Shown one piece after another: positions 17,226 through 64,000 of a stretch of DNA of 64,000 bases (within the stretch, counting starts at the first letter, position 1; every line of letters starts with the position of its first letter). The translations under genes and the position numbers were made by a program. The stretch comes from Candidatus Bathyarchaeota archaeon. Its GTDB lineage: Archaea > Thermoproteota > Bathyarchaeia > Bathyarchaeales > Bathycorpusculaceae. Below the pieces are notes generated by a model, which saw only the letters and a program-made list of their open reading frames with translations, was not told where the DNA came from and searched no databases. The stretch lies in the NCBI GenBank assembly GCA_963827165.1, contig CAWGZR010000005.1, forward strand, positions 672,001-736,000. The letters are read 5' to 3'.

Positions 17226-18209
17226 TTAGATGGGGTAAGCTCCGCAAACTTTGCAGAACTGTATCTTGGTTTTGATGTAGCTGTGGCATTTCGGGCATTG
17301 TATGCCGCCTTCGATTTTAGGGAAGATGTCTTTTGGTTTGCCGAATTTCTTGCGGAATACTTCATAGTAAAGCAGTTGCTCTTTGTCTTGGATTTCAACG
17401 TCGTCTGCCTCTTTGATTGCTGCTTTCTTCTCCGCGAATTCCTTCTCAGTTACCATGTCATTGAAGTAGGTCCTCAGAGTCTCTGTTCCTGTTCCCGCTT
17501 CAAGCGGCGCTTTAGGTCTCCAGATGACGTCTTTAGGAATCACATCCTCATAGGCCATGCGCAAAATCCATTTGCTATATTTCACGCCGTCATGCATGTT
17601 AATCTTGAATTTGATAGGCAACTTCATAGCCCAATCCATGAATGATGGGTCACGGTATGGTGCTTTGATTTTCATTCCAAGAGATTCCGCCATTGGGTCC
17701 GATGAGAAACCCATCTCCGCCCACATTTCCTTCTGTTTCACTTCGAATTCAGCTTCAGACAGATGGAATTGCCATGGGTAGCCGAAGAGTTCATCAAGTG
17801 CGTCACCGGTGAATACAGTTTTGATTCCTTTGGGTTTGAACAGGGTTAAGCCGATGTACACTGGTAGGCTGTTTCTGATTTCCATTGGGTCGAATTTTTT
17901 GAGTGCTTCCACAACTTTTGGGTAGAATTTCATTACGTCTTCTTTGCCAAACTGGTACGTCTCCTGTTTCAGGTGAAGGAGCTCAACCATCCGCTTTACG
18001 TATTCGGTGTCTTTTGGTTTTCCATGTTTAAAGGCTAAGGTTAGGCATGGTATGTCAGGTTTGTATTTTACTGCCTCATAGGCGATTATTTGGGTGTCGG
18101 TTCCAGCTGAAAATAAGAAGCCGTCAGCCATGTTGTCTTTGACACATTTGTTTATCAGGGTTCTGACTTTTGGCAAGAGTTTGGTATATTCTGAAGGGTC
18201 TAGCGTCAT
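17226..18209 (-). CDS. Asparagine-synthase-like ATP pyrophosphatase lacking a glutaminase domain, with C-terminal Zn ribbon
   Basis: Variant PP-loop FSAGTDT, TGDALDELFGY, KWILRMAYE, WRPKAP, CPKC..CKVC; likely start MTLDP at 18209. Confidence 0.8.
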   Translation of the reverse strand: MTLDPSEYTKLLPKVRTLINKCVKDNMADGFLFSAGTDTQIIAYEAVKYKPDIPCLTLAFKHGKPKDTEYVKRMVELLHLKQETYQFGKEDVMKFYPKVVEALKKFDPMEIRNSLPVYIGLTLFKPKGIKTVFTGDALDELFGYPWQFHLSEAEFEVKQKEMWAEMGFSSDPMAESLGMKIKAPYRDPSFMDWAMKLPIKFKINMHDGVKYSKWILRMAYEDVIPKDVIWRPKAPLEAGTGTETLRTYFNDMVTEKEFAEKKAAIKEADDVEIQDKEQLLYYEVFRKKFGKPKDIFPKIEGGIQCPKCHSYIKTKIQFCKVCGAYPI

Positions 18210-18386
18210 TTCTTTCCCTCGCAATGTATTGTTTGTCATTTTACCAGTATTTAAGTTTACCTTATGCATACAAAAGCCAATAAATTATAAACAAGTGTGC
18301 TGAAAGTGAGCAAAATACTGAACAGACGAGTTAAGACATCTGTCCAAAAAGGCCCTAATCGAAACATCACATTTAAAAGTTAAAAA

Positions 18387-19181
18387 ATGTCAGTCATAAC
18401 AACACCCGCAGGCGCCAGAGGTAGACCTTTGAAAGTAAGCCTACTGCATATGGAGATACGCAATACTTTTGAAGCAAACATAGCCGCAGCCAAAGCCGCA
18501 GTTGAAAAAGCCTCAAAAGAAAAACCAGCAATAATCGCCCTACCCGAATACTTCACCATACCCAACTGCATGGCAGATTTCACCGACGCACAAAAAATTT
18601 CCGAAGAAACCTGCAAAGAAACACTACGATTTCTGCAAGAAGAATCAAAACAGATCGGCGACATCTACCTTTTAGGTGGCTCTGTCCTCGAAGAAGACAA
18701 CGGACAATACTACAACACAAGCACCCTCTGGAAAAACGGCTCCCTATTGGCAAAATACAAAAAAATGAACCCAATACGAGCCGAAATCACAGCCGGGGTT
18801 GCCAGAGGCCGCCAACCCGTCGTTGTTGACACGCAAATCGGCAGAATTGGCCTGTTAGTTTGCGCTGATTCGTTTGACCCCGGTCTTGTGAAACGGGTCG
18901 CGGAGATGGGTGCAGAGATTGTTTCTCTTCCTGTTGCTGCAATGGGAACTCATCCCGTGGTGAAGGGCCACCCATTAACTGAAGGGATCGCACGTACATA
19001 CGGTCTGTTCCTGCTTAAGGTGGGGAATGTGTGTTCAAGCATGAGGGGGGGAAGAAGCGCCATAATCGCTCCATGGGGAACACTTGGCGAAGTAACTGAC
19101 GCGCCTGAAGACTCGATATTGACCCGAGACCTCGACTTTCCGCGATTAAAAGAATACCGAAGCAAACTCAATAGAGCTTAG
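18387..19181 (+). CDS. Carbon-nitrogen hydrolase (nitrilase superfamily)
   Basis: Glu-Lys-Cys triad in LPEYF, YKKMN and LVCAD; GRSAIIAPWG. Confidence 0.88.
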   Translation: MSVITTPAGARGRPLKVSLLHMEIRNTFEANIAAAKAAVEKASKEKPAIIALPEYFTIPNCMADFTDAQKISEETCKETLRFLQEESKQIGDIYLLGGSVLEEDNGQYYNTSTLWKNGSLLAKYKKMNPIRAEITAGVARGRQPVVVDTQIGRIGLLVCADSFDPGLVKRVAEMGAEIVSLPVAAMGTHPVVKGHPLTEGIARTYGLFLLKVGNVCSSMRGGRSAIIAPWGTLGEVTDAPEDSILTRDLDFPRLKEYRSKLNRA

Positions 19182-20052
19182 CCCAACCGTCAACGATTCG
19201 GCTCATTTCCTTAAAATCATATGTTTTCAGCCAATCTCTTAGATTTTCGTTTTGAACGGCAAACTTGCAAACTTGCCTCGCATTCTCAGAGTCATGCACC
19301 AGCAACAAAACAGCATCAACTTTGTGTCTCGAAACGTAAGCTACTGTTTTCAACAACGCCTCAAGTTTTTCGTCAGTTGGCATTTCAGCGCTCAACTCCA
19401 CCACAACAGGTTTCTTGAGTGATGCAACAAAATCCCTTGCCAACATGATCGCCCAGTAGTTAGTAAAGTAATCTCGTGATGAAAGCGGAACGTGAAAATA
19501 ATCAACCAAATCCGCTATCACGCCAAGGTCTAGACCATACCGCTCTTTCGCAAGAACTGGGTCAGGGTAAATTTCCACCGCGAAAGATCCCTTCACCCGC
19601 GATTTGGCTTCCTTCAAAAACTGGGTCACCGTTTGTGCTCTCCACTCTGTCCAGTTTAGCCCGCTTTGTTTCCAAAGTTCAACGCATCTGGGGCAGACGC
19701 AGTATTCTTGGTCGGGAAAATGGTATAGGTTTAGGGTTACGCCCAAAATGTTTTCCTTGCTTAAGCTTTCAATGTAGTTTAAGGCTTTTGCCTTGTAAGC
19801 TGGGTGGGTTGGGCATACAAAGTCAAAAGCAAGGTTTGAACGCTTGTTTTTGCGAAGCGCTGGACCCGTGTTTGACATTGCGACTAAGGTGGGGTCTTCT
19901 CTTATTGCTTTAGCGTCGCAAAAGACCGTGACGTCGTTTTGCATGTCTTTGGCGGCCGGAAAAACTTGTCCATCGGCAGATTTTGAATAATAAACTTGAA
20001 GGTCGTAGCCCTCGACTTTCTCGGGCTTGTAAGTTACTAACCCTATCTGCAT
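19168..20052 (-). CDS. Cys-rich putative TIM-barrel (glycoside-hydrolase-like) protein, paralog A
   Basis: DFVCPTHP, HFPDQEYCVCPRC, WTEWRAQTVTQFL, PDP..YG.D shared with 21457..22362. Confidence 0.6.
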   Translation of the reverse strand: MQIGLVTYKPEKVEGYDLQVYYSKSADGQVFPAAKDMQNDVTVFCDAKAIREDPTLVAMSNTGPALRKNKRSNLAFDFVCPTHPAYKAKALNYIESLSKENILGVTLNLYHFPDQEYCVCPRCVELWKQSGLNWTEWRAQTVTQFLKEAKSRVKGSFAVEIYPDPVLAKERYGLDLGVIADLVDYFHVPLSSRDYFTNYWAIMLARDFVASLKKPVVVELSAEMPTDEKLEALLKTVAYVSRHKVDAVLLLVHDSENARQVCKFAVQNENLRDWLKTYDFKEMSRIVDGWAKLY

Positions 20053-20104
20053 ATTTCCTTAGTTGATGCGCGCAAACAATATATTCTTGGCGCTTGATTA
20101 ACTT

Positions 20105-20323
20105 TTGATTCGCATGGGCAAACAGAAAAAATCTCCAATTATTATTGACATCACCAAATGTACTCCTTGTGCAGGAATCATCTGCGTCGGCGTTTGCCCT
20201 CAAGCTGTGTTTGAAGAAGGCAAAAATAGAAAGCCGGAGATAATCGACGTGGTTGAGTGTACTCAATGTGGCGTCTGCGTGAGTTTGTGTCCAGCAAAAG
20301 CAATTACTATAACCAAGTCGTAA
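20105..20323 (+). CDS. 2[4Fe-4S] ferredoxin
   Basis: CTPCAGIICVGVCP and CTQCGVCVSLCP. Confidence 0.9.
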   Translation: MIRMGKQKKSPIIIDITKCTPCAGIICVGVCPQAVFEEGKNRKPEIIDVVECTQCGVCVSLCPAKAITITKS

Positions 20324-20347
20324 CAGAGAGTTAAGGCGCCAAAAATC

Positions 20348-21391
20348 ATGGAGCAGTTTGAACTTGCAGACAACGTGAGGCTGGTTGTCAAAGAAAATGT
20401 ACTAGCCGTAATTTGTGATACTCCTTTAAAGACAGTTAGTTCAGCATTCTATCATGGCGGGTATAACCAGCTTAAAGCTGTCCTCAATGTAGGGGTGCCG
20501 GACGGATACAGTGACCGATCCTTGCACCTTGACCCGCTAGAACTAATCACCTCATCCGCCTCCAAACTGGGATTAACAAACGATTACCTCGCTATGGTCA
20601 CAGCCGCCAAAATCCAAAACTTCAGCCTAGTCACCAAAAAACTCGACGGCTTCTCAGTCAGCGTCGCCGCAACAGCAGGTTGCAAACACGGAGAATCAAG
20701 CGGCGAAGAAATGAATGTACAGGAAATCGCCGGAGGCACAATAAACCTCATCGTCTTCCTCGACGCTGACCCCACAGACAGCTGCATGGTGGCATCCGTC
20801 ATCACAGCAACCGAGGCGAAATCCGCAGTTCTCAGAGACTTTGATGTTCGCAGCTTCTATACAGGTGATTCCGCGACTGGATCCATAACCGACAGCGTAT
20901 CAGTGGTCTCTAACGGCAAAGGCAAAGCGATCAACTATGCTGGTCCAGCCTCAAAATTGGGCAAAGCAGTCGGCTTCTGCACAAAAAAAGCAGTATCCGA
21001 AGCACTCATCAAGCAAGAACCCTTCTGGGCAAGCCGAACCGCTCTTGACAGGCTCAAAGAGAGGCATCTTCCACTGGAGAAACTTGCCGCGGAGGTATCC
21101 AAAGTCGAAGGCTTAGGTGTCAATGCTGAGAGTTTGGCTGAAATTCTAAAAAATAAACCCGTTGCCCTCGCTCATTTGTTGGCGGCGGCAAAAATGGATG
21201 ACGAGATAAAGAAGAACTTGTTGACTAAAGAATTCGTTGATGCTGCTGACCTCAGCAAATGCTTCGGCAACCTGGCCAACGAAGTAAAGGATTGCTCTAA
21301 CCAGCCAAGTTACGATTCAGTTGATCTGCCACCCTTTCTGAAACATGTTTTAATCAAAATTGTGAAGAAAGCTCTTTCTGGCGATAGCTGA
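20348..21391 (+). CDS. cbiZ: Adenosylcobinamide amidohydrolase CbiZ with a C-terminal CobZ-like extension
   Basis: MVTAA, ATAG, GTINL, TATEAKS, ATGSITDS and YAGPAS CbiZ motifs, followed by about 120 extra residues. Confidence 0.85.
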   Translation: MEQFELADNVRLVVKENVLAVICDTPLKTVSSAFYHGGYNQLKAVLNVGVPDGYSDRSLHLDPLELITSSASKLGLTNDYLAMVTAAKIQNFSLVTKKLDGFSVSVAATAGCKHGESSGEEMNVQEIAGGTINLIVFLDADPTDSCMVASVITATEAKSAVLRDFDVRSFYTGDSATGSITDSVSVVSNGKGKAINYAGPASKLGKAVGFCTKKAVSEALIKQEPFWASRTALDRLKERHLPLEKLAAEVSKVEGLGVNAESLAEILKNKPVALAHLLAAAKMDDEIKKNLLTKEFVDAADLSKCFGNLANEVKDCSNQPSYDSVDLPPFLKHVLIKIVKKALSGDS

Positions 21392-21456
21392 AAAGACTTA
21401 AATAACTTGCAATTTTATTCGTTGGTTAAAACAAAGGTTACGATGGTGTATCAAAA

Positions 21457-22362
21457 GTGAAATTTGGCGTATTTCTCTATCAACCCGAGCCTGTTGAAGG
21501 CGTCGACTACAACTTTTACCGATTGAAATCTGAGTCAGGAATTGTTGGGAAACCTAACCCTGAAATGTACACTAACATCGCGTGCTTTGGCGATAATTTT
21601 ATGGCTGCGAAAAAGCCAGATTGGGTGTCTGTAAGCTCCTTTGGTCCTGCACTTCGCACAAACAAACACTATAACCTTCGCTGGGACGTCGTATGCATGA
21701 CCAACCCAGAAGCGCGAGAATACAACCTCAAGATTATCGCTGAAAGCGCCAAGGTCACCCCCGGCATAAGCATCAGTAGCCAACACTTTGCCGATCAAGG
21801 TTTCTGTACCTGCCCAAGATGTGTAAAAGAGCAGGCGAAGAGCGGCTTAAGTTGGCTTGACTGGCGCGCAAAGGTCGTAACTGAATTCTTAGCTGAAGTT
21901 AAAGAAAATGTCTCGGGCAAACCGCTGTTCGTAAACTGCTTGCCTGACCCGTTACTGGGCAAGGTCCGTTTTGGCTATGACTTTGAAGCCATGGCGCAGT
22001 ACGCTGACTACTTTGTCATCCCAATGTTCAGCAAAGCTTACCCAACCCCTTGGTACTGGGAAACAATCGCCAGAGGCTACAAGAGCTTCCTAAAAAAGCC
22101 TGTTTATGTGAACTTCTACGTTCGTGGTCCAAACGAAACATGGGATACCGTGGCACCAGCAAAACAAATAATGACGGTCGCCACTCGAGTTGCAAGACAA
22201 GGAGTCGATGGCATCATTTTCTTGGCAGAGAAAGCCGACTATATACGTGAGTTCCAGAAGAGATGCGTTGAAGACAAGGAAACACGCGAGTTTCTCAAAG
22301 ACCACAACGGTGACGAAGTTTTGGAGCTTTTCAACAGATGGGAAAAGATGCTTAAAGCGTAG
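21457..22362 (+). CDS. Cys-rich putative TIM-barrel protein, paralog B
   Basis: WDVVCMTNP, HFADQGFCTCPRC, WLDWRAKVVTEFL, LPDP..RFGYD. Confidence 0.6.
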   Translation: MKFGVFLYQPEPVEGVDYNFYRLKSESGIVGKPNPEMYTNIACFGDNFMAAKKPDWVSVSSFGPALRTNKHYNLRWDVVCMTNPEAREYNLKIIAESAKVTPGISISSQHFADQGFCTCPRCVKEQAKSGLSWLDWRAKVVTEFLAEVKENVSGKPLFVNCLPDPLLGKVRFGYDFEAMAQYADYFVIPMFSKAYPTPWYWETIARGYKSFLKKPVYVNFYVRGPNETWDTVAPAKQIMTVATRVARQGVDGIIFLAEKADYIREFQKRCVEDKETREFLKDHNGDEVLELFNRWEKMLKA

Positions 22363-22747
22363 CATCCCCTCTTTCTCGTCTGACTTTTTTTTATGATCCC
22401 AATGAATATGGATTATGTGTTTTTCGATCGATTAAAACCAAGGGGCTTAGGTCACTGGAAATTAGAGCACATGATCCCTCCCCCCCAGTTTGTCAATCAA
22501 ACCACGAGCGGATTACGGGCTTATCATTTTTTTCATAACAAAACAGACGCATCAAAAAAAACCTCGCCTCTAAAGGGCGCACTGTTTTTACTTCAGAAAA
22601 CAATAACAAAAATGGAATAGAATACTCGCAAATCTGTTTCATTCCTCGAAAGCTCCTTTATCTGCCTGTTTTGCTTTTTTGTGCCTTATTTAGAAAACTA
22701 TATAATTCCTCATGTCGTACAAGCAGTAACTTAAAGGGCGTATCTGC

Positions 22748-24133
22748 TTGAAGATTACTTTGGTTAATCCTCCTTACCCGCTGCATGTGCATTCGCATCC
22801 GCCGTTTATTCCGCTTGGCCTAGCCTATCTGGGCGCGGTGGCGGAGCGGGCAGGGCATGAAGTCAACATCATTGACTGCCAAGCTGAAAAACTACTATAT
22901 GATGGGTTCCGGCAGAGAATCAGCCAATTGAAATCCGATGTCATCGGGGTAACCGCCACCACGCTCCTGTATAAGTCAGCCATGCAGCTTATCGACATAG
23001 CCAAGGATGTGCAGCCGCAAGCAGTGACCCTGCTGGGGGGAAGCCACGGAACTTTCTGGGACGAAAACGCCCTCAAAGAGTTCCCGAGCCTTGATGTGGT
23101 TGTAAGACGAGAAGGCGAAGTGACCTTTATCGAGCTCCTCAGCAAACTGCAAATCGGCAGCAGCCTTGCAGACGTGCTCGGAGTTACCTTCAGGTCAAAA
23201 GACGGCACAATAATTCGCAATGAAGACAGACCATTCATGGAGGATTTGGATTCACTTCCGTTTCCCGCCCATGATTTGCTCCCGCTCGAATCGCTCAAAC
23301 GAATGGGCAAAATCCTTTTTCCACTCATTACCAGCCGCGGTTGCGTATACTGGTGTGACTTCTGTAGTACAGTGCGAATGTTTGGCAGAGGATACCGTTT
23401 CAGAAGCCCAAAAAACGTTGTCGACGAAATGCAATTGGTCCACGACAAATACGGCGTGGATCAAGTCACCTTCTATGATGATGCATTCTCAGTTAACCGC
23501 GATCGAGTTCTCAAAATCTGTGAGGAACTCCATGCTAGAAACCTTGACATGACATGGGACTGCGGAACACGCGTCGACATGGTTGATCGAGAAATGCTCA
23601 AAACCATGCATGAAGCAGGATGCATAGCTGTTTGGATGGGCGTTGAATCAGGTTCAGAAGCCATACTAGGCAAAATGAACAAGAAAATCAAGCTTGATCA
23701 GACACGCGCAGCATTCAAAACAGCAAACGATGTTGGTTTAATGACTATTGGAAACGTTGTGTTGGGCTTTCCAGGCGAAACTGAGCAGACAGCGAAAGAA
23801 ACAATTCGCTTTGTCAAGGAACTTAACCTTGCTGACGTCGGCTTCTACGTTGCTACACCGTATCCTGGGACACCAATGTATGAGCAGGTCAAGAATAACG
23901 GTTGGCTACGAGTCACTGATTTCGATAAATACGATACTGCGGGGCCGACATTCGAAACTCCTTGGTTGACCATGGAGAAACTTGCGGAAATCCGCTACAA
24001 AGCCTATCAGCAATTCTATCTGCGCCCAGGTTACGTGTTTCACATGATGCGTAAAGGTGGAACTTACGGTAAGTCAGCGGTGAAAACTTCAGGCGCTTAC
24101 CTGCTCAGAGCTTTGCATATCAGGCTGTCTTAA
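22748..24133 (+). CDS. Cobalamin-binding radical SAM enzyme #1
   Basis: N-terminal B12 domain (PLGLAYL, GGSHGT, EGE), TSRGCVYWCDFC, GVESGS, TPYPGT. Confidence 0.92.
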   Translation: MKITLVNPPYPLHVHSHPPFIPLGLAYLGAVAERAGHEVNIIDCQAEKLLYDGFRQRISQLKSDVIGVTATTLLYKSAMQLIDIAKDVQPQAVTLLGGSHGTFWDENALKEFPSLDVVVRREGEVTFIELLSKLQIGSSLADVLGVTFRSKDGTIIRNEDRPFMEDLDSLPFPAHDLLPLESLKRMGKILFPLITSRGCVYWCDFCSTVRMFGRGYRFRSPKNVVDEMQLVHDKYGVDQVTFYDDAFSVNRDRVLKICEELHARNLDMTWDCGTRVDMVDREMLKTMHEAGCIAVWMGVESGSEAILGKMNKKIKLDQTRAAFKTANDVGLMTIGNVVLGFPGETEQTAKETIRFVKELNLADVGFYVATPYPGTPMYEQVKNNGWLRVTDFDKYDTAGPTFETPWLTMEKLAEIRYKAYQQFYLRPGYVFHMMRKGGTYGKSAVKTSGAYLLRALHIRLS

Positions 24134-24496
24134 CATTCTAACGAAAGCCACAACAGCGAAAACCAGCACAATAGCGCTAAGAGAAACCGTTATCGAAGTA
24201 AAGTTTATTCCTACCGGCGAAAGACCCAAAAACAAGCCTGTTAACCCGTCTAAACCAAAACTCAACGCCACCGACAACACCGCCTGCTCCACTGGGTCAA
24301 CTCGGTTTTTGCCAATAAAGAGGACTTTTACTAAGCAGTAGCCTGGAAGGAAAACAACAAAAATAAAACCGAAAACATAACGCAAAACTGCAAACCACGA
24401 ATTTCCCGGAATAAAGTACGTCACACTTAACGTTAAAACTGTGAAGGCAACGATGATTTCAAGCCATTCAAGAGGTTTCAGGTTTTTTCGCTTCAA
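24089..24496 (-). CDS. DUF1616-like membrane protein
   Basis: FVVFLPGY...DPVEQAVLSVALS motif; likely TTG start at 24496. Confidence 0.75.
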   Translation of the reverse strand: MKRKNLKPLEWLEIIVAFTVLTLSVTYFIPGNSWFAVLRYVFGFIFVVFLPGYCLVKVLFIGKNRVDPVEQAVLSVALSFGLDGLTGLFLGLSPVGINFTSITVSLSAIVLVFAVVAFVRMLRQPDMQSSEQVSA

Positions 24497-24531
24497 AACT
24501 TTAAAAATAAAAAATAAAGGAAGGGTTTTTT

Positions 24532-25443
24532 CTACATAAACATCTTGTAGATCGGATGAGTTTCCTCGACTGGTCTTGTTCCAAGGTCGCCTGCGGCTGA
24601 AGCAACGTATGTGTCGGTTATGGCTACGGCGGGGAATATCCATTCAGCTTGCTCTGCGGGTCCAATCATAAGCCAGTTTGCGCCTACAGTCTGCATGATA
24701 GAGTTGGTTGAGGTTCTGCATCCGGGGCGGAATTCTTTCGCGACGTTTGCTTTGACCCAACCCATAGTTGTGACTACGTTTCCGCTGCCCAGGCCTACTG
24801 GATGACCATACTTCTCTTTCATAATCGGTATGGTTCTAACTGCTGTACCCATGTCTGGAGCGAACGCTGGAATGGCTGTGTCAATCAAAGGCTTTGTGAT
24901 TCCACCTTTTTCTGCCAACGCTAATGCTTCCTCAATGACCTTCATTTTACCTTCCATTGTGGTATCTTTAGGATCATCGGCAAGCACTATTGACATTTTG
25001 ACACCGCTTTCTTTCAAATTCGCCAATTCAGCATCGGTAACACCCTTGTAGACTGAATTGTAGAGGCATCGGTCTGCAAGACCCATCTTCTTAGCGATAG
25101 TGGCTGCAGTCATACGTGTCTTCGGACTCATCGCATCAAGCATTAATGGAGCATCGCTGTGTTTCGCAACGAAGTCAATGTATTTCTCAAAAGCCAACTC
25201 CGTAGTTCCAACAATGTCAAACGCAAACTGCACACCAGTAATGTCACTTTGATTCTGCATCGTGTTGATGATGTCTTCCGCAGCTTTAGCGTCAAAAATA
25301 CCCTTGTTTGCATCTTGAACCATTTTCTGGCCAAGCCAAAAGATGGATCCGATGAGAAAAGTCGGTAGTTCTCCCGGTTGTCCGCCTACTTTAGCTCTTC
25401 CAACAGTGTATATTTTCTGTTCGGTGTTGAATTTAAAGGACAT
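24532..25443 (-). CDS. MtrH-like pterin:corrinoid methyltransferase
   Basis: MSFKFNTEQKIY..VGGQPGELPT..GSIF, LYNS and KPLIDT match the MtrH/MtgA family. Confidence 0.88.
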   Translation of the reverse strand: MSFKFNTEQKIYTVGRAKVGGQPGELPTFLIGSIFWLGQKMVQDANKGIFDAKAAEDIINTMQNQSDITGVQFAFDIVGTTELAFEKYIDFVAKHSDAPLMLDAMSPKTRMTAATIAKKMGLADRCLYNSVYKGVTDAELANLKESGVKMSIVLADDPKDTTMEGKMKVIEEALALAEKGGITKPLIDTAIPAFAPDMGTAVRTIPIMKEKYGHPVGLGSGNVVTTMGWVKANVAKEFRPGCRTSTNSIMQTVGANWLMIGPAEQAEWIFPAVAITDTYVASAAGDLGTRPVEETHPIYKMFM

Positions 25444-25462
25444 TTTTCCTCATCCGACGGAT

Positions 25463-53986: not shown

Positions 53987-54060
53987 AAAGATCTGTTTGA
54001 TGCTTAAACATTTCGCATTTTCGGGGCAAAAAGTGGTGAAGGAAATTTTTGACGGATTTC

Positions 54061-58314: not shown

Positions 58315-58332
58315 AACAGCCACGGGAAAACC

Positions 58333-58398: not shown

Positions 58399-59259
58399 AT
58401 GCGTTTATTGGCAAGGCTAACCCGCCATAGATGGGATTACACTTTGCCTCAAGACCTGACGCTTAAAGAAAAAATTCATCGAGCAAACATACACGTTCAC
58501 CATCTTGAAGCACAATACTACGAACTGCTCCACCCTGAAGTGTACTCCAAGCAAGAACAAAAAAGAACGACTGCGAAGCTCCAAGAAGTTGATAAGCTTA
58601 TCACCGACAACCACAGAGTCGCTCTGGATGTCGGGGCAGGTACCGGAAACCTAACGGGCAAACTTCTACATATGGGTTACACCGTCACCGCCGTGGACAT
58701 TTCACAAGAAATGTGCGCAATCCTCCCCAAAAAATACCCTGCCTATCTCAAAAATGAAAAGTTGAAGGTGATTTGCGCACCCATTGAGGAGATGGATTTT
58801 GAAGAACAACAATTTGACGCTATCACATGCTACTCCGTGCTTCATCATCTACCCGACTACATTTACGCCCTCCGCTGCCTCTCAGTTTTCCTAAAGAAGG
58901 GCGGAGTTATGTACCTCGACCATGAAGCATCCCCTTTCTACTGGAAAAACGAACCCAGCATGCTTTCCAGCCTCGTGAAAGGGATATATCTGCACTCAAA
59001 TCCTCTGCTTAACAGCTTGTACTTTCAAATAACCGGGTTAAGAGTACCCTCAATAGATTACGAGCTTTCGGATTATTGGCATAAAAAAGAGCACGCCCTA
59101 AACCACGGGAGCATAAAGCAATTGTTCAAAGATGAAAAATATCAGTTTTCAAAACGTACTGATTACTACGAAACCAGCACTTGGATTCCCAGCCCACTTT
59201 CCTTCATTTACCGCCTTCTATGTAGCCCTGAAATGAGCTGTTGGACAGCTAAAAAATAA
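58399..59259 (+). CDS. Class I SAM-dependent methyltransferase
   Basis: LDVGAGTG, AVDIS, FDAITCYSVLHHLPD, LKKGG. Confidence 0.9.
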   Translation: MRLLARLTRHRWDYTLPQDLTLKEKIHRANIHVHHLEAQYYELLHPEVYSKQEQKRTTAKLQEVDKLITDNHRVALDVGAGTGNLTGKLLHMGYTVTAVDISQEMCAILPKKYPAYLKNEKLKVICAPIEEMDFEEQQFDAITCYSVLHHLPDYIYALRCLSVFLKKGGVMYLDHEASPFYWKNEPSMLSSLVKGIYLHSNPLLNSLYFQITGLRVPSIDYELSDYWHKKEHALNHGSIKQLFKDEKYQFSKRTDYYETSTWIPSPLSFIYRLLCSPEMSCWTAKK

Positions 59260-60636
59260 CTACGCGATTCCAACGTTTTGGTGAGCTTTTGGGTTCAATC
59301 TTCTTTTTGCGAAGTTAAAGGCGCCTTCACGTTTTACCCGCTTCATTATTTGTTTTGGCGAGCGGTGGAAATCTATGAAGAATCTTCTTTGAATTTTTAG
59401 CAGGGAGTTGTAGTCAAACTCTTTGGTTTTTACAGCTAGCAGAAAATCGTCAAGCTTGACATAACTATTTGAATCTAAGACTTCCTGATAGAGCCTGCTA
59501 TCTGGGTTTGCAATGAAGATGTTAAATATACACCAGTCGGGACTCAGTTTTTTAGCGAACTTCAACGACATTTCCATATCTTTGAGCGTCTCGTCTGGGA
59601 CACCCAGCATGAATGAGCAGGCTGTTTTTATGCCATTTTTGCTGCAAAGCTTGAAGGCGGTTTCTATCTGCTCAAGAGTTGTGTTTCGCCCGATCCGCTG
59701 TAGAATCCTCTGCGACCCCGACTCCACGCCGAACCAGATTGTTTTGCATCCCGCTTTGCTCATGGTCTCCAAAAGTTCCTGGTTAACTAAATCCACGCGG
59801 GTGTCACATACCCATTCTAAATCTAGATTATTCTCAACCATCAGATTGCAAAGTTCGATGGTTTGTTTCTTTCTGAGTGTAAAGTTGTCGTTGATGAAGT
59901 AAATTCCTTTTGTGCCATACTTGCTTTGCAAATCCTTTATTTCCCCGATGACCCGCTGTGGACTGAATGCTCGGCAGATGTTTCCCCAGAGTTTTTTTGT
60001 TTCGCAGAAGCCGCAGTTGTAGACGCATCCCCGTGAGATGCTCATTATGTCGGCGGGTTTAACGTTGAGGTACTCAACGGTTCTGTCGTAAAGTTCGAGC
60101 TTTAACAGGTGCCTTGCGGGATAAGGAATTTCATCCATGTTTTCGATGAATTTTGGCGGGTTTTTGATGTTTTTGCCTTGACGTTTGCATGCGACTCCAG
60201 GTATTGTCATGGCGGCTTGTTCATTGCCGTTTGTTATGCATGTAGCTAGTTCCGTTATTGCGCGTTCGCCTTCGCCCATAACAACGTAGTCGATTTCAGG
60301 GTTGTCCAGCAAACTGTCGGGAACGTAAGAGGCGTGCCATCCGCCAACGATTATCTTACAATCAGGTAGGGTTTCCTTGATGGCTTTGGCGGTTTCTGTA
60401 CAGCGCGAATAGGTGGCTGACCCACAGGTGATGCCAACAATTTGAGGTTTAAGATTGAACACCAGCTGTTTTACTTCGCTGATGGGGTTTTTCATAAGGT
60501 AGTTGTCGAGCATCTGCACTTCGAAGCCTGCTTTTTCCAGTGCCGCGGCAACATACATTAAACCTATAGGAGGCAACCGTTTGCCAAGGTACCATGCGCC
60601 GTTTTCGGGAGGAGCCGTTGTCATTAAAAGAATCAA
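59260..60636 (-). CDS. Cobalamin-binding radical SAM enzyme #6
   Basis: PPIGLMY, GGWHAS, GEGE, SRGCVYNCGFC, GVESGS. Confidence 0.92.
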   Translation of the reverse strand: MILLMTTAPPENGAWYLGKRLPPIGLMYVAAALEKAGFEVQMLDNYLMKNPISEVKQLVFNLKPQIVGITCGSATYSRCTETAKAIKETLPDCKIIVGGWHASYVPDSLLDNPEIDYVVMGEGERAITELATCITNGNEQAAMTIPGVACKRQGKNIKNPPKFIENMDEIPYPARHLLKLELYDRTVEYLNVKPADIMSISRGCVYNCGFCETKKLWGNICRAFSPQRVIGEIKDLQSKYGTKGIYFINDNFTLRKKQTIELCNLMVENNLDLEWVCDTRVDLVNQELLETMSKAGCKTIWFGVESGSQRILQRIGRNTTLEQIETAFKLCSKNGIKTACSFMLGVPDETLKDMEMSLKFAKKLSPDWCIFNIFIANPDSRLYQEVLDSNSYVKLDDFLLAVKTKEFDYNSLLKIQRRFFIDFHRSPKQIMKRVKREGAFNFAKRRLNPKAHQNVGIA

Positions 60637-60868
60637 ATTAGTTTTCTCCTTCTGTGAAACTTTGCAATCTAAGCAGCACGTTTTGTCTCCCTGTAAACGT
60701 TTGCTTACTTTGATTAAACCCGCGTTTATAGGTTTAACTGAACCTACGTTTAGGAGTGTTTGTTATTTGTTTTTGCTGTTTTCTGAAAGCAAAGCCTGTG
60801 GTTGCAGATGTTTATGAAAAGGTTTATAGCCCTTCCGAGTGCCTTTTCCAGAACGAAGAGGGGTAAAG

Positions 60869-61576
60869 ATGAAAGTTGTCGTCCACTGGAGCGGCGGCAA
60901 AGAATGCTGCTTAGCTTACCACAAAGTCGTCAAGCAGGGACATCACGTTGCTTGTCTTCTCAGCTTCGAATATCAGCGTCCTTACGTATTTCACAGTTTC
61001 CAGATGATGCATCTCCAATCCCAAACGCTGGGCACGCCCCTTAAAGTTGTCAGAATCAGAAAGCCGTACGAAGACATCCTTGGCGCCCTGAGCAAACTAA
61101 AGGATGAGGAGGGCATTGAAGGCATCGTTACAGGCGATATAGCTGGTGCAGGATGCGCCATTGTACACTCAAGCTACTATGAGAGTATGGCCAAACAGTT
61201 GGGGTTAGCTTTCTTGATGCCTAACGAGGGCGACACGTACGAAGTGCTTAAGGACGCTGTGAGCACAGGTCTAAGACCGGTCTTAACTTGTATCAACACC
61301 AACTTTTTCGGCGAGGAATGGCTGGGAAGAAAACTTGATCCAGAATCCGTCAAGGAACTCAAAGCGATAGCCGACGAAAAAGACATTGACGTTGCCAGCG
61401 AAGACGGACAAGGCTACCACAGCACCGTGGTCGAAGCGCCTCTTTTTAAAGATTCTTTGAGCATAGGCAAATTCAAAACTAAGAAAAAGAAGGAAAAATC
61501 CAAAAATTGGAAAAGAAACTGGCTCTACATGGACATTAAAGAGTGCCATTTGACGCCAAAGCAACCGTCCAAGTGA
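60869..61576 (+). CDS. DUF71/diphthine-ammonia-ligase-like ATPase, paralog B
   Basis: WSGGKEC, FHS, GIVTGDI, WLGR, YHSTVVEAPLF; start MKVVV at 60869. Confidence 0.85.
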   Translation: MKVVVHWSGGKECCLAYHKVVKQGHHVACLLSFEYQRPYVFHSFQMMHLQSQTLGTPLKVVRIRKPYEDILGALSKLKDEEGIEGIVTGDIAGAGCAIVHSSYYESMAKQLGLAFLMPNEGDTYEVLKDAVSTGLRPVLTCINTNFFGEEWLGRKLDPESVKELKAIADEKDIDVASEDGQGYHSTVVEAPLFKDSLSIGKFKTKKKKEKSKNWKRNWLYMDIKECHLTPKQPSK

Positions 61577-61705
61577 GGTTCCTTCGACCTTTTGGCCTTC
61601 ATCATTCTGAAAATCTGATATTTTAGGTTTCAGATGGAAAATTGCGTGCAATTGCATAAAGTAAATGTAGCACAAGGTATAAACTCTATTGCTTCAGGTA
61701 AAAAC

Positions 61706-63118
61706 ATGAAAACTCGCATTACTCTTGTCAATCCGCCGTACCCTGCCGGTTCCCATCAACATCCCCCTTTCATGCCTCTGGGTATAGGGTACTTAGGCGC
61801 TGTGTTGTACAAGAATCACTTTGAAGTTAACGTGATTGATTGTCAAGCGCAGAAATTAACGCACAGCCAATTCAAAGAGGAAATCAGCAAGGTTCAGCCG
61901 GACATAGTTGGAGTCACCTGCACAACCCTCACCTACAAGTCAGCGCTCGGCATAGTGAAAATAGCTAAACAAGTTTGGCCAAAATGCCTAACCGCAATCG
62001 GAGGACCCCACGTCACTTTCTGGGATGAAAAGGCACTGCAGGAATGTCCTGAACTTGACATTGTGGTCAGAGGCGAAGGCGAGAATACGATTCTTGAACT
62101 TGCGCAGAGAGTCGAAAACGGTCAAGCGTATCATGACCTCATCGGAACTACCTGCAGAAACGGCTCGGCAATGGCGAAGAACCCCGATAGACCGTATTTG
62201 GAGAACCTCGACAGCTTACCGTTCCCAGCTCTGCATCTATGGTCGCACACGGCGAACTTGCGCAAATACGGTACGATTCCCTACCCAGTGATGACAAGCC
62301 GCGGCTGCGTCTACTGGTGCAATTTCTGCACAACTGTGCGTATGTTTGGCAGAAGATACCGCATGCGCAGCACCAAAAACGTGGTTGACGAGTTGGAGTT
62401 CCTGCACAAGAACTATTATGCGACTCAATTCACCTTTTACGATGACGCATTCACAGTTAACCAAGAACGGACGATGGAGATATGCGACGAAATCGTGCGC
62501 AGAGGGCTAAAAATCAAATGGGACTGTGAAACCCGAGTGGACATGGTTTCCAAAGAATTGTTCGTTAAGATGAGGGAAGCAGGTTGCATCGCTGTTTGGT
62601 TCGGTGTAGAGTCGGGTTCAAAGACGCTTCTAACCAGCATGGGAAAGGGTTTCTCGCTTACGCAGACAAGACGGGCTTTCAAGTGGGCAAAAGAAGCGGG
62701 CTTGATGACAGTTGCAGGCGTCATTTTAGGATTTCCCGGCGAAACCAAGGAAACCGTTTGGGAAACAATCCGGTTCATAAAAGAGCTGAACCCAAATGAC
62801 GTCGGCTTCTACATTGCAACACCTTACCCAGGAACACCGCTATATGAGGAAGTCAAAGCAAGCGGTAGGCTAAAGATAACTGACTTCGACAAGTATGACA
62901 CTGCAACGCCGACTTTCGAGATTCCAAATTTCACGATGCAAGAGCTATCACAAATCCGGGAAAAAGCATTCCAAAGCTTCTACCTTAGCCCAGCATACTT
63001 CGTCAGCGCTCTTGGCATGTTCAGACAAGGCAAAATGTGGGGTTTAGGCGCAACTCGACTGATTCTCGCTCACGCAAGACGGGCAGTAATAGCGAGGGCA
63101 AACAGCATCATGAAATAG
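61706..63118 (+). CDS. Cobalamin-binding radical SAM enzyme #7
   Basis: PLGIGY, GGPHVTFWD, TSRGCVYWCNFC, TPYPGT; start MKTRIT at 61706. Confidence 0.92.
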   Translation: MKTRITLVNPPYPAGSHQHPPFMPLGIGYLGAVLYKNHFEVNVIDCQAQKLTHSQFKEEISKVQPDIVGVTCTTLTYKSALGIVKIAKQVWPKCLTAIGGPHVTFWDEKALQECPELDIVVRGEGENTILELAQRVENGQAYHDLIGTTCRNGSAMAKNPDRPYLENLDSLPFPALHLWSHTANLRKYGTIPYPVMTSRGCVYWCNFCTTVRMFGRRYRMRSTKNVVDELEFLHKNYYATQFTFYDDAFTVNQERTMEICDEIVRRGLKIKWDCETRVDMVSKELFVKMREAGCIAVWFGVESGSKTLLTSMGKGFSLTQTRRAFKWAKEAGLMTVAGVILGFPGETKETVWETIRFIKELNPNDVGFYIATPYPGTPLYEEVKASGRLKITDFDKYDTATPTFEIPNFTMQELSQIREKAFQSFYLSPAYFVSALGMFRQGKMWGLGATRLILAHARRAVIARANSIMK

Positions 63119-63145
63119 AAAAATTTTGACGGAGAAAATGTTAGA

Positions 63146-64000
63146 TTGATTTTGCTGATGACTACTGCGCCGCCCTTGAAGTCGCCTTGGGGCGTGGCTG
63201 GAAGGCTTCCTCCTTTGGGTTTGGCATACGTTGCCTCAGTACTGGAAAAAAGCGGCTTCCAAGTTGAAATCTACGACAATTACTTGCTCGAGCGACCCAT
63301 CGAAGAAGTTAAATCGGAAATAAGAAAATGCTCCCCAGAAATCGTTGGCTTAACATGCAATTCTTTGTCTTATGAGCGAGTCGTGGAAATGGCTAAGACA
63401 GTTAAAGAGGCGTGTCCTTCCTGCCGCGTTATTATCGGCGGTCCGCATGCCTCGTACATGCCTGAGACACTGCTTGAACACCCGGAGATAGATTACGTAG
63501 TTGTCGGAGAAGGAGAGAGGGCCATGGTTCAGCTTGTTTTCAACATTACAAAAGGCGAAAAGGCCTCGGCGGCAGCGCAGATTCCCGGAGTTGCATGCAA
63601 AATCGGTGGTGAAATAGCCGAAACTCCACCTCAATTCATCGCTAACCTGGATGAGGTTCCTATTCCAGCCCGTCAATTGCTGCCGATGCGGATGTACGTT
63701 CGGGAACTGAGTTATCTTAGCGTTAAACCCGTTGACACCATGAGCATACATCGTGGTTGTCCCTACAGATGCGCTTACTGCGAGACAAGGGAGCTTTGGG
63801 GCTCAGCTTGCCGCGCGTTTTCGCCGCAGAGAGTAATCGACGAAATCCAGCAGATAGTCGAAACCTACGGCACAAAAGGCATTTACTTTGTCGGCGACAA
63901 CTTTACCATAAACAAAAAACGCACAACCGAACTTTGTCGCCTTATGAAAAGCAACAAAATCGATTTGAAGTGGACTTGCGAAACACGCTCCGACCTAATC
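63146..64000 (+). CDS. Cobalamin-binding radical SAM enzyme #8, truncated by window end
   Basis: Not in the ORF track. Manual translation: MILLMTTAPPLKSPWGVAGRLPPLGLAY...GGPHAS...HRGCPYRCAYCETRELWG; close paralog of #6. Confidence 0.9.
   Translation, partial: MILLMTTAPPLKSPWGVAGRLPPLGLAYVASVLEKSGFQVEIYDNYLLERPIEEVKSEIRKCSPEIVGLTCNSLSYERVVEMAKTVKEACPSCRVIIGGPHASYMPETLLEHPEIDYVVVGEGERAMVQLVFNITKGEKASAAAQIPGVACKIGGEIAETPPQFIANLDEVPIPARQLLPMRMYVRELSYLSVKPVDTMSIHRGCPYRCAYCETRELWGSACRAFSPQRVIDEIQQIVETYGTKGIYFVGDNFTINKKRTTELCRLMKSNKIDLKWTCETRSDLI

Follow-up and report, generated by a model that had tools for sequence, protein, structure and literature searches.

Why should eleven radical S-adenosylmethionine (rSAM) genes lie together in one short stretch of an archaeal chromosome, and do they serve a single product? 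The question is posed by positions 17226-64000 of a 64,000-nucleotide stretch of DNA (this whole stretch is called the window) on contig CAWGZR010000005.1 of Candidatus Bathyarchaeota archaeon, an archaeon of the class Bathyarchaeia from soil or sediment. An earlier note, made from the letters alone, had taken the region for a self-supporting island of eight B12-dependent rSAM (B12-rSAM) enzymes, two SPASM enzymes and one HemN-like enzyme that together make one multiply methylated and amidated, probably envelope-associated product. The answer we favor, with a probability of roughly 45%, is a mosaic “cobamide economy” neighborhood, in which cobamide-dependent enzymes are gathered with the genes of cobamide salvage and the modules share cofactor needs rather than one pathway. 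That the neighborhood is real, non-random and conserved in Bathyarchaeia is observed directly.

Passages of one study (PMC10989822) count Bathyarchaeia with the archaea found in greatest abundance in anoxic sediments and soils, and a genome survey, in the parts that treat these enzymes, has their metabolism leaning heavily on B12-dependent rSAM chemistry (PMC11697101). The Bathy-6 metagenome-assembled genomes (MAGs) described in those parts carry 7-20 COG1032 B12-rSAM genes each, many COG0535 SPASM-type genes including a PqqE-like one, dozens of secreted PQQ-domain proteins that the authors link to lignin, and CbiZ. The abundance of B12-rSAM and PQQ-domain genes in Bathy-6 is thus already in print. 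In the same passages of the main text, counts and the lignin hypothesis are given with no statement that B12-rSAM genes are concentrated at a single locus with cbiB and cbiZ; one supplement has no occurrence of COG1032, MtgA, MtgB, MtgC or RnfD, and part of the map may already be drawn in Figures S4 and S7 of that work. In the literature on Bathyarchaeia radical SAM enzymes, covered as titles, abstract starts and passages, we found no published account of the locus as a unit. Nor do the passages covered describe a conserved neighborhood that brings eight separate B12-rSAM paralogs together with three further rSAM genes and the cobamide salvage genes around an Mtg-type O-demethylase block. New here are its recurrence around an RnfD-family anchor gene, the separate old orthogroups of six of the seven B12-rSAM genes placed on a tree, and the co-directional arrangement of cbiB and cbiZ with B12-rSAM genes at operon-like spacing.

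Density and conservation of the radical SAM genes

Open reading frames (ORFs) were taken from a six-frame listing (at least 100 amino acids, aa), and domains were assigned by Pfam and NCBIfam scans against curated cutoffs. With these scans and a check of small ORFs, all eleven rSAM genes and all the accessory genes listed in the earlier note were found (Table 1, which gives the numbering used below). All eight B12-rSAM genes have both PF02310 (43-88 bits, cutoff 32.1) and PF04055 above cutoff, and the complete enzymes are 458-494 aa long; PF13186 in the two SPASM proteins scores 25.7 and 28.1 bits against a cutoff of 21.5, and the CxxxCxxC motif occurs in all 11 rSAM proteins, once in each B12-rSAM. 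Among the 35 genes called, 8 B12-rSAM genes are observed where 0.13 would be expected from a closed Bathy-6 genome, for which passages of the survey give 11 COG1032 genes in 2928 coding sequences (PMC11697101). The concentration is far above chance, with a hypergeometric P of 3e-14, or 4e-10 under the least favorable assumptions tried, on a baseline that comes from a relative rather than from the window’s own genome. The claim that no core housekeeping genes interrupt the region also stands: the tRNA search and the Rfam and Pfam scans found no tRNA, Rfam, ribosomal or replication gene within 17226-64000.

The neighborhood was followed into other genomes with a scan of one-genome-per-species contigs, in which the RnfD-ferredoxin protein (32873-34273) served as anchor and 10-kb flanks were taken. 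The scan matched 91 stretches, of which 63 encode a relative of the anchor, in 61 loci and at 46-88% identity. ORFs were called in all 61 loci and compared with 33 window proteins, a gene being scored as present at an identity of at least 40% over more than half of the window protein; the anchor ORF was present in 58 loci and missing or broken in L024, L053 and L060. Pfam was run on the non-matching ORFs of 16 chosen loci (147 of 161 ORFs, the 14 dropped being shorter than 130 aa). Well-flanked loci, those with at least 8 kb on both sides of the anchor, number 36, and 32 of them have one or more rSAM genes no farther than 10 kb from it (median 3). The HemN-like gene is the most conserved rSAM of the set, and several neighbors exceed the anchor in conservation, its median identity being 59% (Table 1); the GT-C-like pair is found in 17/36 and 18/36 loci at medians of 64% and 63%.

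Members also stay together in loci that have been rearranged (L043, L044, L052, L053 and L054). L043 and L044 share the order helix-turn-helix (HTH) gene, RnfD, HemN-like, propeller, SPASM 2, Amidohydro_3, membrane protein, B12-rSAM 5, CbiB; L052 and L054 are inverted mixtures; and L053 has the left block joined directly to Amidohydro_3, B12-rSAM 4, CbiB, B12-rSAM 5 and the Lrp regulator. Beside the anchor in Bathycorpusculum loci there is no HemN-like gene or B12-rSAM 2. The neighborhood recurs, then, in other Bathyarchaeia, and the genes of its central block are linked rather than scattered; the statement covers the central block because only that part lies within 10 kb of the anchor.

Two features of L053, a close relative, may be recorded here. 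Its membrane gene and Amidohydro_3 stand without the intervening segment that runs from the HemN-like gene to B12-rSAM 3, and the RnfD-FeS gene is split into two overlapping ORFs (L053:10459-11399), either a frameshifted pseudogene or an assembly error. As to the sources of the loci, close database homologs bear the names “Candidatus Bathyarchaeia archaeon” or “Candidatus Bathyarchaeota archaeon”. L011, L015, L024 and L060 are titled as Nanoarchaeia, Sulfotelmatobacter, Actinomycetes and Bacteroidetes bins and carry the Bathyarchaeia block at 59-94% protein identity; they are probably mis-binned, since their gene content is Bathyarchaeia-like.

Table 1. Genes of the region 17226-64000, with the basis of each assignment and the occurrence among the 36 well-flanked loci
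Feature	Position	Strand	Basis	Loci	Median identity
Asn_synthase-like PP-loop amidoligase	17226-18269	-	PF00733 111 bits; below all NCBIfam equivalog cutoffs		
Carbon-nitrogen hydrolase (nitrilase superfamily, CN_hydrolase)	18387-19181	+	PF00795 93 bits; divergent from AsnS-like gene		
MtgB-like protein a, 294 aa, candidate methyltransferase 1	19168-20052	-	paralog of MtgB-like protein b		
Ferredoxin, 72 aa, 2x[4Fe-4S]	20105-20323	+	Cys motifs; Fer4_10, Fer4_7, Fer4_9 above cutoffs		
CbiZ domain protein (adenosylcobinamide amidohydrolase)	20348-21391	+	PF01955 157 bits, residues 24-216		
MtgB-like protein b, 301 aa, candidate O-demethylase (methyltransferase 1)	21457-22362	+	TIM barrel in predicted model		
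B12-rSAM 1	22748-24133	+	PF02310 + PF04055	12/36	83%
DUF1616 membrane protein	24089-24643	-	PF07760 68.8 bits; four hydrophobic segments		
MtrH-family methyltransferase, MtgA-like (methyltransferase 2)	24532-25443	-	PF02007 259 bits	19/36	91%
Corrinoid protein, MtgC-like	25463-25891	-	PF02310 53.4 bits	19/36	93%
GT-C-like membrane protein 1	26011-28320	+	hydrophobic segments, Atlas, fold matches		
GT-C-like membrane protein 2	28329-30743	+	hydrophobic segments, Atlas		
SPASM rSAM 1	30924-32021	-	PF04055 + PF13186; AhbD/NirJ-like, below cutoffs	28/36	81%
Small protein, weak winged-helix (HTH) signal, two hydrophobic segments	32159-32620	-	Pfam below cutoffs	18/36	
RnfD-family membrane protein fused to 2x[4Fe-4S] dicluster (anchor)	32873-34273	+	tail resembles RnfC C-terminus		
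Five-segment membrane protein	34452-35120	+	no Pfam family	23/36	65%
HemN/ChuW/HemW-like rSAM	35821-37116	-	PF04055 71.8 bits + PF06969 (HemN_C) 38.8 bits	27/36	88%
B12-rSAM 2	37253-38653	-	PF02310 + PF04055; 136 bp upstream of HemN-like gene, same strand	15/36	69%
DUF71 (Diphthami_syn_2) PP-loop protein 1	38845-39588	+	PF01902 122 bits		
PQQ-like beta-propeller 1	39639-41885	-	Pfam; terminal hydrophobic segments	15/36	60%
SPASM rSAM 2	41943-43040	-	PF04055 + PF13186	16/36	82%
PQQ-like beta-propeller 2	43307-45889	+	Pfam; terminal hydrophobic segments	8/36	
B12-rSAM 3	45905-47371	-	PF02310 + PF04055		
Amidohydro_3 metal-dependent hydrolase	47641-49290	+	PF07969 308 bits		
Small hydrophobic protein, 88 aa	49299-49565	-	no Pfam family; 81% identical at same place in L053		
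B12-rSAM 4	49979-51427	-	PF02310 + PF04055		
CbiB	51480-52475	-	TIGR00380 230.1 vs 165.9; NF002281 276.8 vs 273; equivalog cutoffs passed		
B12-rSAM 5	52577-53986	-	PF02310 + PF04055		
Fused double Lrp/AsnC regulator	54061-55083	-	Pfam		
Surface PQQ-like propeller/Ig-like protein 3	55579-58314	+	Pfam; terminal hydrophobic segments		
Class I SAM methyltransferase	58399-59259	+	best NCBIfam CpaM (corrinoid-protein-associated) 60.9 vs cutoff 180		
B12-rSAM 6	59260-60636	-	PF02310 + PF04055		
DUF71 (Diphthami_syn_2) protein 2	60839-61576	+	Pfam		
B12-rSAM 7	61634-63118	+	PF02310 + PF04055		
B12-rSAM 8	63146 to beyond 64000	+	PF02310 + PF04055; truncated by window end		

The mtg-like block and the cobamide salvage genes

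The content of the region, in which the earlier note recognized no described pathway, is partly explained by described systems, namely MtgABC and CbiZ/CbiB salvage. A Bathyarchaeia-specific O-demethylase has been described from Ca. Baizosediminiarchaeum ligniniphilus (Yu et al. 2023, PMC10989822), and the passages of that work that deal with it give the gene order MtgC, MtgA, membrane protein, MtgB_1, MtgB_2. MtgB is there a pair of ~300-aa paralogs with no known homologs, confined to Baizomonadales. In vitro, the published ortholog moves the methyl group of guaiacol or vanillin to Co(I) of MtgC, and the binding of MtgB to MtgC that we assume rests on published in vitro work; the MtrH-type MtgA then hands the methyl group from MtgC to tetrahydromethanopterin (H4MPT). 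Those passages identify no activating enzyme for the corrinoid protein.

The window repeats this relative order: a gene for a corrinoid protein is followed by those for a methyltransferase 2 of the MtrH type, a small membrane protein and two paralogs of ~300 aa. It differs in that a ferredoxin gene and cbiZ separate the two MtgB-like genes, and in that a B12-rSAM gene stands between the MtgB-like genes and the membrane protein. The published description of the mtg cluster, in the parts that set it out, mentions no ferredoxin, cbiZ, B12-rSAM or rSAM-rich surroundings, and the supplement of PMC10989822 has no occurrence of “radical”, “Rnf” or “PQQ”. The genes for the corrinoid protein and the MtrH-like protein are 19 bp apart, the latter scoring 266.1 against the NCBIfam mtrH cutoff of 271.4. 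The two MtgB-like proteins are 34% identical over 299 aa; the Pfam scan found no family for protein a, and a search of PDB sequences gave no match for protein b. Protein b starts MKFGVFLY and ends NRWEKMLKA, to be set beside the MKFGMFIY and DKWESILD of published MtgB_2, as derived from its cloning primers (PMC10989822). Its model (pLDDT, the predicted local distance difference test, 89.7) is a predicted TIM barrel nearest to glycoside hydrolase-like barrels such as the C-terminal domain of PgaB. Of its 181 database homologs the best 120 are all hypothetical or unnamed, and the 6 of these that are named for a taxon comprise 4 from Bathyarchaeota/Bathyarchaeia and 2 from bacterial-labeled bins.

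In other loci, too, the parts are found side by side: in L013 and L061 an MtgB-like gene has the genes for the membrane protein, MtrH and the corrinoid protein as immediate neighbors, and the MtgB-like gene of L012, where no DUF1616 match was called, adjoins those for MtrH and the corrinoid protein. The mtgB-bearing MAGs bog_990, bog_991, fen_992, palsa_986 and Emb289P1bin127, named in the supplement of PMC10989822, are, by record title, the sources of L023, L033, L045, L028 and L037. Size, paralogy, order, distribution and terminal peptides all fit, and the case that the block corresponds to the Mtg system is strong but not closed, published MtgB having been compared by its termini only. As a separate observation, the alignment of the MtgB-like family contains an invariant C117-x-C119-x-R121-C122, with P120 nearly invariant and many invariant aromatics; this CxCxRC motif may be a metal site in the candidate O-demethylase.

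The same block invites a catabolic reading of the whole region, in which the rSAM enzymes and the secreted PQQ-like propellers act with MtgABC on aromatics derived from lignin or humic matter. We know of no rSAM enzyme that cleaves or modifies lignin units. B12-rSAM 1 adjoins mtg genes in every locus where it is seen, and in L010, L016 and L024 it is co-directional with MtgC, MtgA and the membrane protein, 114-271 bp downstream of the membrane protein gene; relatives come, by record title, from peat, soil, termite-gut and pulp-mill bins; and passages of the Bathy-6 survey both print the same hypothesis and report several genes conserved around MtgA-MtgC (PMC11697101). The rSAM proteins, however, are without signal peptide or run of membrane segments, whereas the polymer is extracellular. 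Median identities of 88% for the HemN-like protein, 83% for B12-rSAM 1 and 81-82% for the SPASM proteins, as against 59% for the anchor, moreover fit fixed cellular substrates better than environmental ones that vary. We hold the catabolic reading to be unlikely, if well worth keeping in mind.

The cobamide economy reading draws instead on what stands between and beside these genes. Nine proteins of the region are predicted to bind cobamide, and they are sited with genes supplying cobamide. On the left, ferredoxin, cbiZ, MtgB-like b and B12-rSAM 1 form a co-directional run with gaps of 24, 65 and 385 bp, and CbiZ lies beside the mtg (MtrH/corrinoid) block in L030, L032, L034, L035, L036 and L061, at a CbiZ identity of only 45-48%; the window’s CbiZ protein has an additional ~130-aa C-terminal extension beyond the CbiZ domain. 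On the right, the run 49979-55083(-) comprises the Lrp/AsnC gene, 74 bp, B12-rSAM 5, 101 bp, CbiB, 52 bp and B12-rSAM 4, so that cbiB sits between two B12-rSAM genes. The B12-rSAM 5-CbiB pair recurs in L043 and L044, and in L053 Lrp, B12-rSAM 5, CbiB and B12-rSAM 4 share a strand, with a NosD/beta-helix ORF on the opposite strand between CbiB and B12-rSAM 5. The double Lrp/AsnC protein is one of two regulators that had been claimed, and it stands as such; the other, at 32159-32620, falls below Pfam cutoffs. A third co-directional run, 60839-64000(+), has DUF71 protein 2, 57 bp, B12-rSAM 7, 27 bp and B12-rSAM 8.

CbiZ and CbiB, both present, are what the window shares with archaeal cobinamide salvage. 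Passages of a study of the DUF71 family (PMC3541065) predict that a DUF71-B12 subgroup acts in B12 salvage, as it clusters with btu genes and cbiB, and give it the signature ENGE[FY]H in place of the EGGE/DxE motif of Dph6. In likeness to this, the window has two DUF71 PP-loop proteins within the cbiB neighborhood, neither gene adjacent to cbiB, and it differs in having no btuFCD genes and DUF71 proteins without the exact signature. Read by eye, the corresponding regions are NIEFH in DUF71 protein 1 and GQGYH in protein 2, an [FY]H-type variant. The cbiB of the window is flanked by B12-rSAM genes, and the main text of PMC3541065 does not contain “radical SAM”. Dph6 itself was rejected as an identity for the two proteins, which score 92 and 97 bits against a cutoff of 197 and have no EGGE motif. 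The Rfam scan gave no family at its gathering score anywhere in the window, and hence no cobalamin riboswitch was found.

The earlier note had taken the amidation-type genes to act on the product. They need not do so, because CbiZ and CbiB constitute a salvage route and a tie between DUF71 proteins and B12 salvage is on record; corrinoid remodeling may instead be the task of the PP-loop amidoligases, the nitrilase-type hydrolase and Amidohydro_3. The Asn_synthase-like protein is without an N-terminal glutaminase domain and has a Cys-rich C-terminal stretch; orthologs occur at 86-89% identity in 4/36 loci and at 63% in L034, and an Asn_synthase fragment adjoins CbiZ in L030. The nitrilase-type protein may supply ammonia by glutaminase activity, to judge from glutamine-dependent NAD synthetase. 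Amidohydro_3 adjoins SPASM 2 in L043 and L044 and lies within 5 kb downstream of it in L017.

Taken together, five modules may be proposed. In the first (19168-25891), the MtgB-like TIM barrels would move methyl groups from methoxylated aromatics to Co(I) of MtgC, and MtgA would pass them to H4MPT, the ferredoxin and CbiZ being inserted in the module. In the second, CbiZ would cleave cobinamide to cobyric acid and CbiB would rebuild adenosylcobinamide phosphate, while the AsnS-like protein with the nitrilase-type protein as ammonia donor, the two DUF71 proteins and Amidohydro_3 might trim and re-amidate salvaged corrinoids. The third would consist of the eight old B12-rSAM paralogs, the HemN-like enzyme and the two SPASM enzymes, each presumably with its own radical reaction, C-methylation or other. 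The fourth would comprise the envelope proteins, two GT-C glycosyltransferase-like and three secreted PQQ-like propellers, and the fifth the RnfD-ferredoxin membrane redox protein. Domain content, rSAM enrichment, synteny, operon-like spacing and orthogroup structure are observed here, and the activity of MtgABC and the roles of CbiZ and CbiB come from the literature. We infer the corrinoid role of the amidoligases, any supply of electrons by ferredoxin or RnfD, and every rSAM substrate.

Radical SAM families and the weighing of the readings

None of the 11 rSAM proteins reaches any NCBIfam family cutoff, so that family membership points to no substrate. The best NCBIfam score among the B12-rSAM proteins is BchE at 250 against a cutoff of 481, and BzaD reaches at most 154 against 450. 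BchE is the top match for 5/8; the other top matches are HpnJ, ApyD and, for B12-rSAM 4, a P-methyltransferase family, all at about half cutoff or less. By NCBIfam cutoffs, then, these enzymes are not members of the characterized subfamilies BchE, HpnJ/R, ApyD, BzaD, PhpK or Mmp10-type, and the solved structures nearest to B12-rSAM 1 are AprD4, TokK, TsrM and OxsB. The SPASM proteins score 198.9 (SPASM 1) and 224 (SPASM 2) against the AhbD cutoff of 500, 157 and 153 against 650 for AhbC, and 118 and 110 against 381 for PqqE; the PDB sequences nearest to SPASM 2 are PqqE (E 1e-17), SkfB and anSME. Pyrroloquinoline quinone synthesis by SPASM 2 was rejected, its PqqE score of 110 being below the 381 cutoff and exceeded by that for AhbD, with no pqqA-D in the window. 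The HemN-like protein scores 188 against 400 for ChuW/HutW, 150 against 205 for HemW and 135.5 against 325 for HemN, and is nearest in the PDB to HemN 1olt (E 1e-21) and NocN (E 1e-8). Its best 120 database clusters are 85-94% identical, bear generic names and are Bathyarchaeia wherever a taxon is named.

That the top matches are tetrapyrrole enzymes (BchE for 5/8, AhbD for both SPASM proteins, ChuW/HutW) would fit a role in tailoring, with BchE-, AhbD/NirJ-, HemN/ChuW- and AhbA/B-like proteins modifying a corrinoid, its lower ligand or another tetrapyrrole. In the same direction, the double Lrp/AsnC protein gives weak AhbA (32.6 bits) and AhbB (31.5 bits) matches, cbiZ and cbiB are embedded in the region, and BzaCDE homologs are reported for Bathy-6 genomes in passages of PMC11697101. 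All of these scores are far below cutoffs (BchE at most 250/481, AhbD at most 224/500, ChuW 188/400, AhbA 33/140, BzaD at most 154/450), the matches look generic because HpnJ and ApyD score about as well as BchE, and the Lrp/AsnC protein scores higher against true regulators (LysM, 90 bits). We find such tailoring highly unlikely; a heme pathway of the AhbA-D type was likewise rejected as the main explanation, all its scores being far below cutoffs.

Lipids are another conceivable substrate, some of the B12-rSAM enzymes being then related to methylases of glycerol dialkyl or monoalkyl glycerol tetraethers (GDGT/GMGT), to ring synthases or to a tetraether desaturase; the backbone-methylated tetraethers attributed to Bathyarchaeia would be one possibility. 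According to passages of a preprint (bioRxiv 10.1101/2025.10.20.683597), archaeal tetraethers are indeed modified by the B12-rSAM enzymes Grs, Gmm, Cgm, Pgm and Ted, the last of them from a Bathyarchaeota MAG; and the rSAM genes of the window have membrane and envelope genes among them. The homolog search for Ted described there was limited, however, to proteins of at least 500 aa, against 458-494 aa for the window enzymes. In that account ted adjoins grs and overlaps an AttH-like gene, whereas Pfam finds no AttH-like, Tes or other lipid gene in the window. Scores for TIGR04072, HpnJ, HpnR and TIGR04190 are below cutoffs and no better than the others. We give lipid tailoring very little credence. 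The one Bathyarchaeia B12-rSAM enzyme with a known substrate is a lipid desaturase, reported from another Bathyarchaeota lineage.

The relationships among the eight B12-rSAM proteins bear on whether they work together. They are 30-58% identical pairwise, B12-rSAM 8 and 6 at 57.5%, and the most alike pairs are not adjacent: B12-rSAM 1 and 7 are 56% identical at a distance of 38 kb, and the adjacent B12-rSAM 7 and 8 only 34%. In a maximum-likelihood tree of 51 sequences (7 complete window paralogs and 44 from the loci), 6/7 placed window paralogs fall each in its own strongly supported clade with sequences from other genomes, the orthogroups of B12-rSAM 1 and 2 having 15 and 20 rows; B12-rSAM 7 has no ortholog among the sampled loci. 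Because the clades are shared with other genomes, the duplications are old and predate the divergence of these genomes, and because old copies have been kept separately, several functions fit better than one iterative step.

The single-product island appears decidedly improbable. In this reading the 11 rSAM enzymes work with the amidoligases, the methyltransferase and the GT-C proteins on one envelope-associated product, multiply C-methylated and amidated, with methyl groups coming from MtrH and the corrinoid protein and electrons from ferredoxin and RnfD. It would account for the extreme rSAM density, for the missing translation and replication genes in 17226-64000, for the GT-C-like proteins and propellers interleaved with rSAM genes in a block conserved in relatives, and for a SAM synthetase 9 kb upstream that stays near the block in relatives. 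Yet the methyl supply it calls for is not borne out: the system matched by MtrH, the corrinoid protein and the MtgB-like genes has another demonstrated role, that of feeding H4MPT, and is not known to supply rSAM enzymes. To our knowledge, no B12-rSAM enzyme draws its methyl group from a separate corrinoid protein. One product is further disfavored by the old, separately kept paralogs, by the variable composition of the modules (the L053 junction and the Bathycorpusculum loci), and by the results for the window itself, in which Pfam finds no nonribosomal peptide synthetase, polyketide synthase, terpene or carrier-protein domain and no scaffold-forming enzyme. When nine small unassigned intergenic-gap ORFs, the ferredoxin ORF and one overlapping ORF among them, were compared with the 61 loci in search of a precursor peptide, only the 88-aa ORF at 49299-49565 was conserved, and only in L053. 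A 102-aa ORF at 35197-35505 was rejected as a peptide, being an artifact of a 10-bp tandem repeat.

A comparison with natural-product loci is instructive. The thienamycin, bottromycin, polytheonamide, bacteriochlorophyll c and hopanoid clusters contain several class B rSAM methylases per locus, acting on unactivated carbons, and such clusters pair two or three of these enzymes with an evident scaffold pathway or precursor peptide. The window has eight B12-rSAM and three other rSAM enzymes with no scaffold genes, and its locus, unlike a sporadic secondary-metabolite island, is a stretch of chromosome conserved within an archaeal order.

Several points weigh against the cobamide economy as well. 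The unifying idea of a shared cofactor need is drawn from co-location, and paralogs that share no function can be left in a cluster by old tandem duplication. The enrichment borrows its gene counts from a related published genome. Because the scan used one anchor gene and 10-kb flanks, no more than a few loci cover the right half (45-64 kb), and in 4/36 (L047, L048, L055 and L056) the anchor has no rSAM neighbor. Housekeeping genes travel with the block too: a bacterial-type SAM synthetase (MetK) in L017, L026, L030 and L050, a GPN-loop ATPase with a DUF4443 regulator in L017, L026, L030, L045 and L050, and a MoCF_biosynth-domain gene in L026, L030 and L050, their window counterparts lying at 6.5-10.5 kb. 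As these genes keep the same neighborhood, part of the synteny may be neutral chromosomal backbone within one order. On the salvage side, Pfam detects no btuFCD-type corrinoid transporter and no other cob/cbi genes in the window, and the DUF71 proteins have no E.GE motif and no exact ENGE[FY]H.

On a further reading there is no functional unit at all, only a slowly rearranging stretch in which old tandem B12-rSAM duplications lie beside unrelated genes. All eight B12-rSAM are paralogs, all relatives found by the anchor scan belong to one class, the MetK, GPN ATPase, DUF4443 and MoCF_biosynth neighbors are syntenic too, and GC content is uneven, at 0.42-0.47 over 17-38 kb against 0.47-0.54 over 38-54 kb (the part with propeller, SPASM 2 and cbiB), from which the modules may differ in origin or codon usage. 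We think it rather unlikely: the closest B12-rSAM pairs are not neighbors, inversions and reshuffling have not separated the members, and the SPASM, HemN-like, cbiB and cbiZ genes, none of them paralogs of the B12-rSAM genes, are enriched at the same place with operon-like gaps.

If the modules of the cobamide economy are co-regulated, the locus would be a clear case of genome organization around a scarce cofactor. Its eight B12-rSAM genes, against 7-20 per published Bathy-6 genome, offer defined, conserved orthogroups to express and assay, and its mtg-like block probably represents the sole experimentally supported lignin-related enzyme system of Bathyarchaeia, here together with cobamide salvage genes. 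The ferredoxin and the RnfD-FeS protein are candidate activators of the O-demethylase corrinoid protein. A more ambitious reading takes the whole region, running on past the window end, for one conserved Bathyarchaeia system; in it, methyl groups that MtgABC removes from methoxylated aromatics, salvaged cobamide, locally made SAM and low-potential electrons from ferredoxin/RnfD would all feed eight B12-rSAM enzymes that poly-methylate an envelope lipid or glycoconjugate or tailor it by other radical chemistry. This seems to us a long shot; if true, it would open a new route from lignin-derived one-carbon units to recalcitrant, heavily branched archaeal biomass.

Envelope, redox and flanking genes

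The three beta-propeller surface proteins of the earlier note were found, with terminal hydrophobic segments, and two of them flank SPASM rSAM 2 in a propeller-SPASM-propeller unit at 39639-45889. Its two GT-C-like proteins fare less evenly. Both contain 10-12 hydrophobic segments and are similar to Atlas clusters of the GT39/PMT_2/STT3 kind, and the model of protein 1 (pLDDT 75.8 and predicted template-modeling score 0.59) has its best fold matches in STT3/AglB/PglB/ArnT (E 2.5e-8); neither has a Pfam match, and the template-modeling (TM) scores are only 0.32-0.40. In L055 (5177-7525), next to the RnfD anchor, one protein fuses a PQQ-like beta-propeller to a PMT/PMT_2 GT-C domain, a hint that the window’s propellers and GT-C proteins may work together.

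The earlier note had also seen dedicated electron supply in the RnfD-FeS fusion. With the Rnf complex the window shares an RnfD/NqrB membrane domain and a 2x[4Fe-4S] domain like the C-terminus of RnfC; it differs in that the full subunit set is absent (Pfam finds no RnfA, B, E or G in the window), in a score of 69.9 against the NCBIfam RnfD cutoff of 207, and in the FrhB fusions of relatives. Rnf was not detected in Bathy-6 according to passages of PMC7886697. Among 8000 scored candidates the protein has 1695 database relatives at E of at most 0.001. Its identity of 46-88% across the loci, the FrhB fusions and the separate RnfC-like partners make it look like general redox machinery rather than a dedicated supply line; electron supply to rSAM enzymes or to the corrinoid protein is possible. 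Loci in which only residues 1-371 match have a separate RnfC-like gene following (Complex1_51K, RnfC_N, 2x4Fe-4S), as with the flavoprotein genes at L026:11152-12450, L030:11122-12408 and L061:11619-12914. Across Bathyarchaeia the RnfD-type architectures are those with a 2x4Fe-4S tail, those with FrhB N- and C-terminal domains in addition (715-732 aa), and unfused forms with an RnfC-like gene.

Outside the region proper, a SAM synthetase of the bacterial/eukaryotic type, with all three S-AdoMet_synt domains, is encoded in this archaeon at 8487-9665(+), 9 kb upstream of the rSAM region; in L017, L026 and L050 its homologs lie a few kb from the SPASM-RnfD block, and in L030 the homolog is found downstream of the anchor at a distance of ~6 kb. 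At 35382-35476, 5764-5849, 6272-6342, 11765-11821 and 11963-12034, units of 10 bp (CGTCACAAAA, GTTGACTTTA, GATGTTTCTA) are repeated in tandem 7-9.5 times between genes, at intervals of one helical turn, and these arrays may be phased protein-binding sites. The first lies inside the cluster, between the membrane gene at 34452 and the HemN-like gene, where it produces the spurious 102-aa ORF; it is not conserved in L001 or L002. At 3434-4086(+) an NTP_transf_2 nucleotidyltransferase and a HepT-like ribonuclease form an MNT/HepT-type toxin-antitoxin module, after which ~2.4 kb (4100-6500) hold no ORF of at least 100 aa. Just upstream of the rSAM region, finally, an acetate-handling set at 11021-17064 comprises a GPR1/FUN34/YaaH (SatP-type) channel, an AMP-forming acetyl-CoA synthetase and an ADP-forming acetyl-CoA synthetase fused to a GNAT domain.

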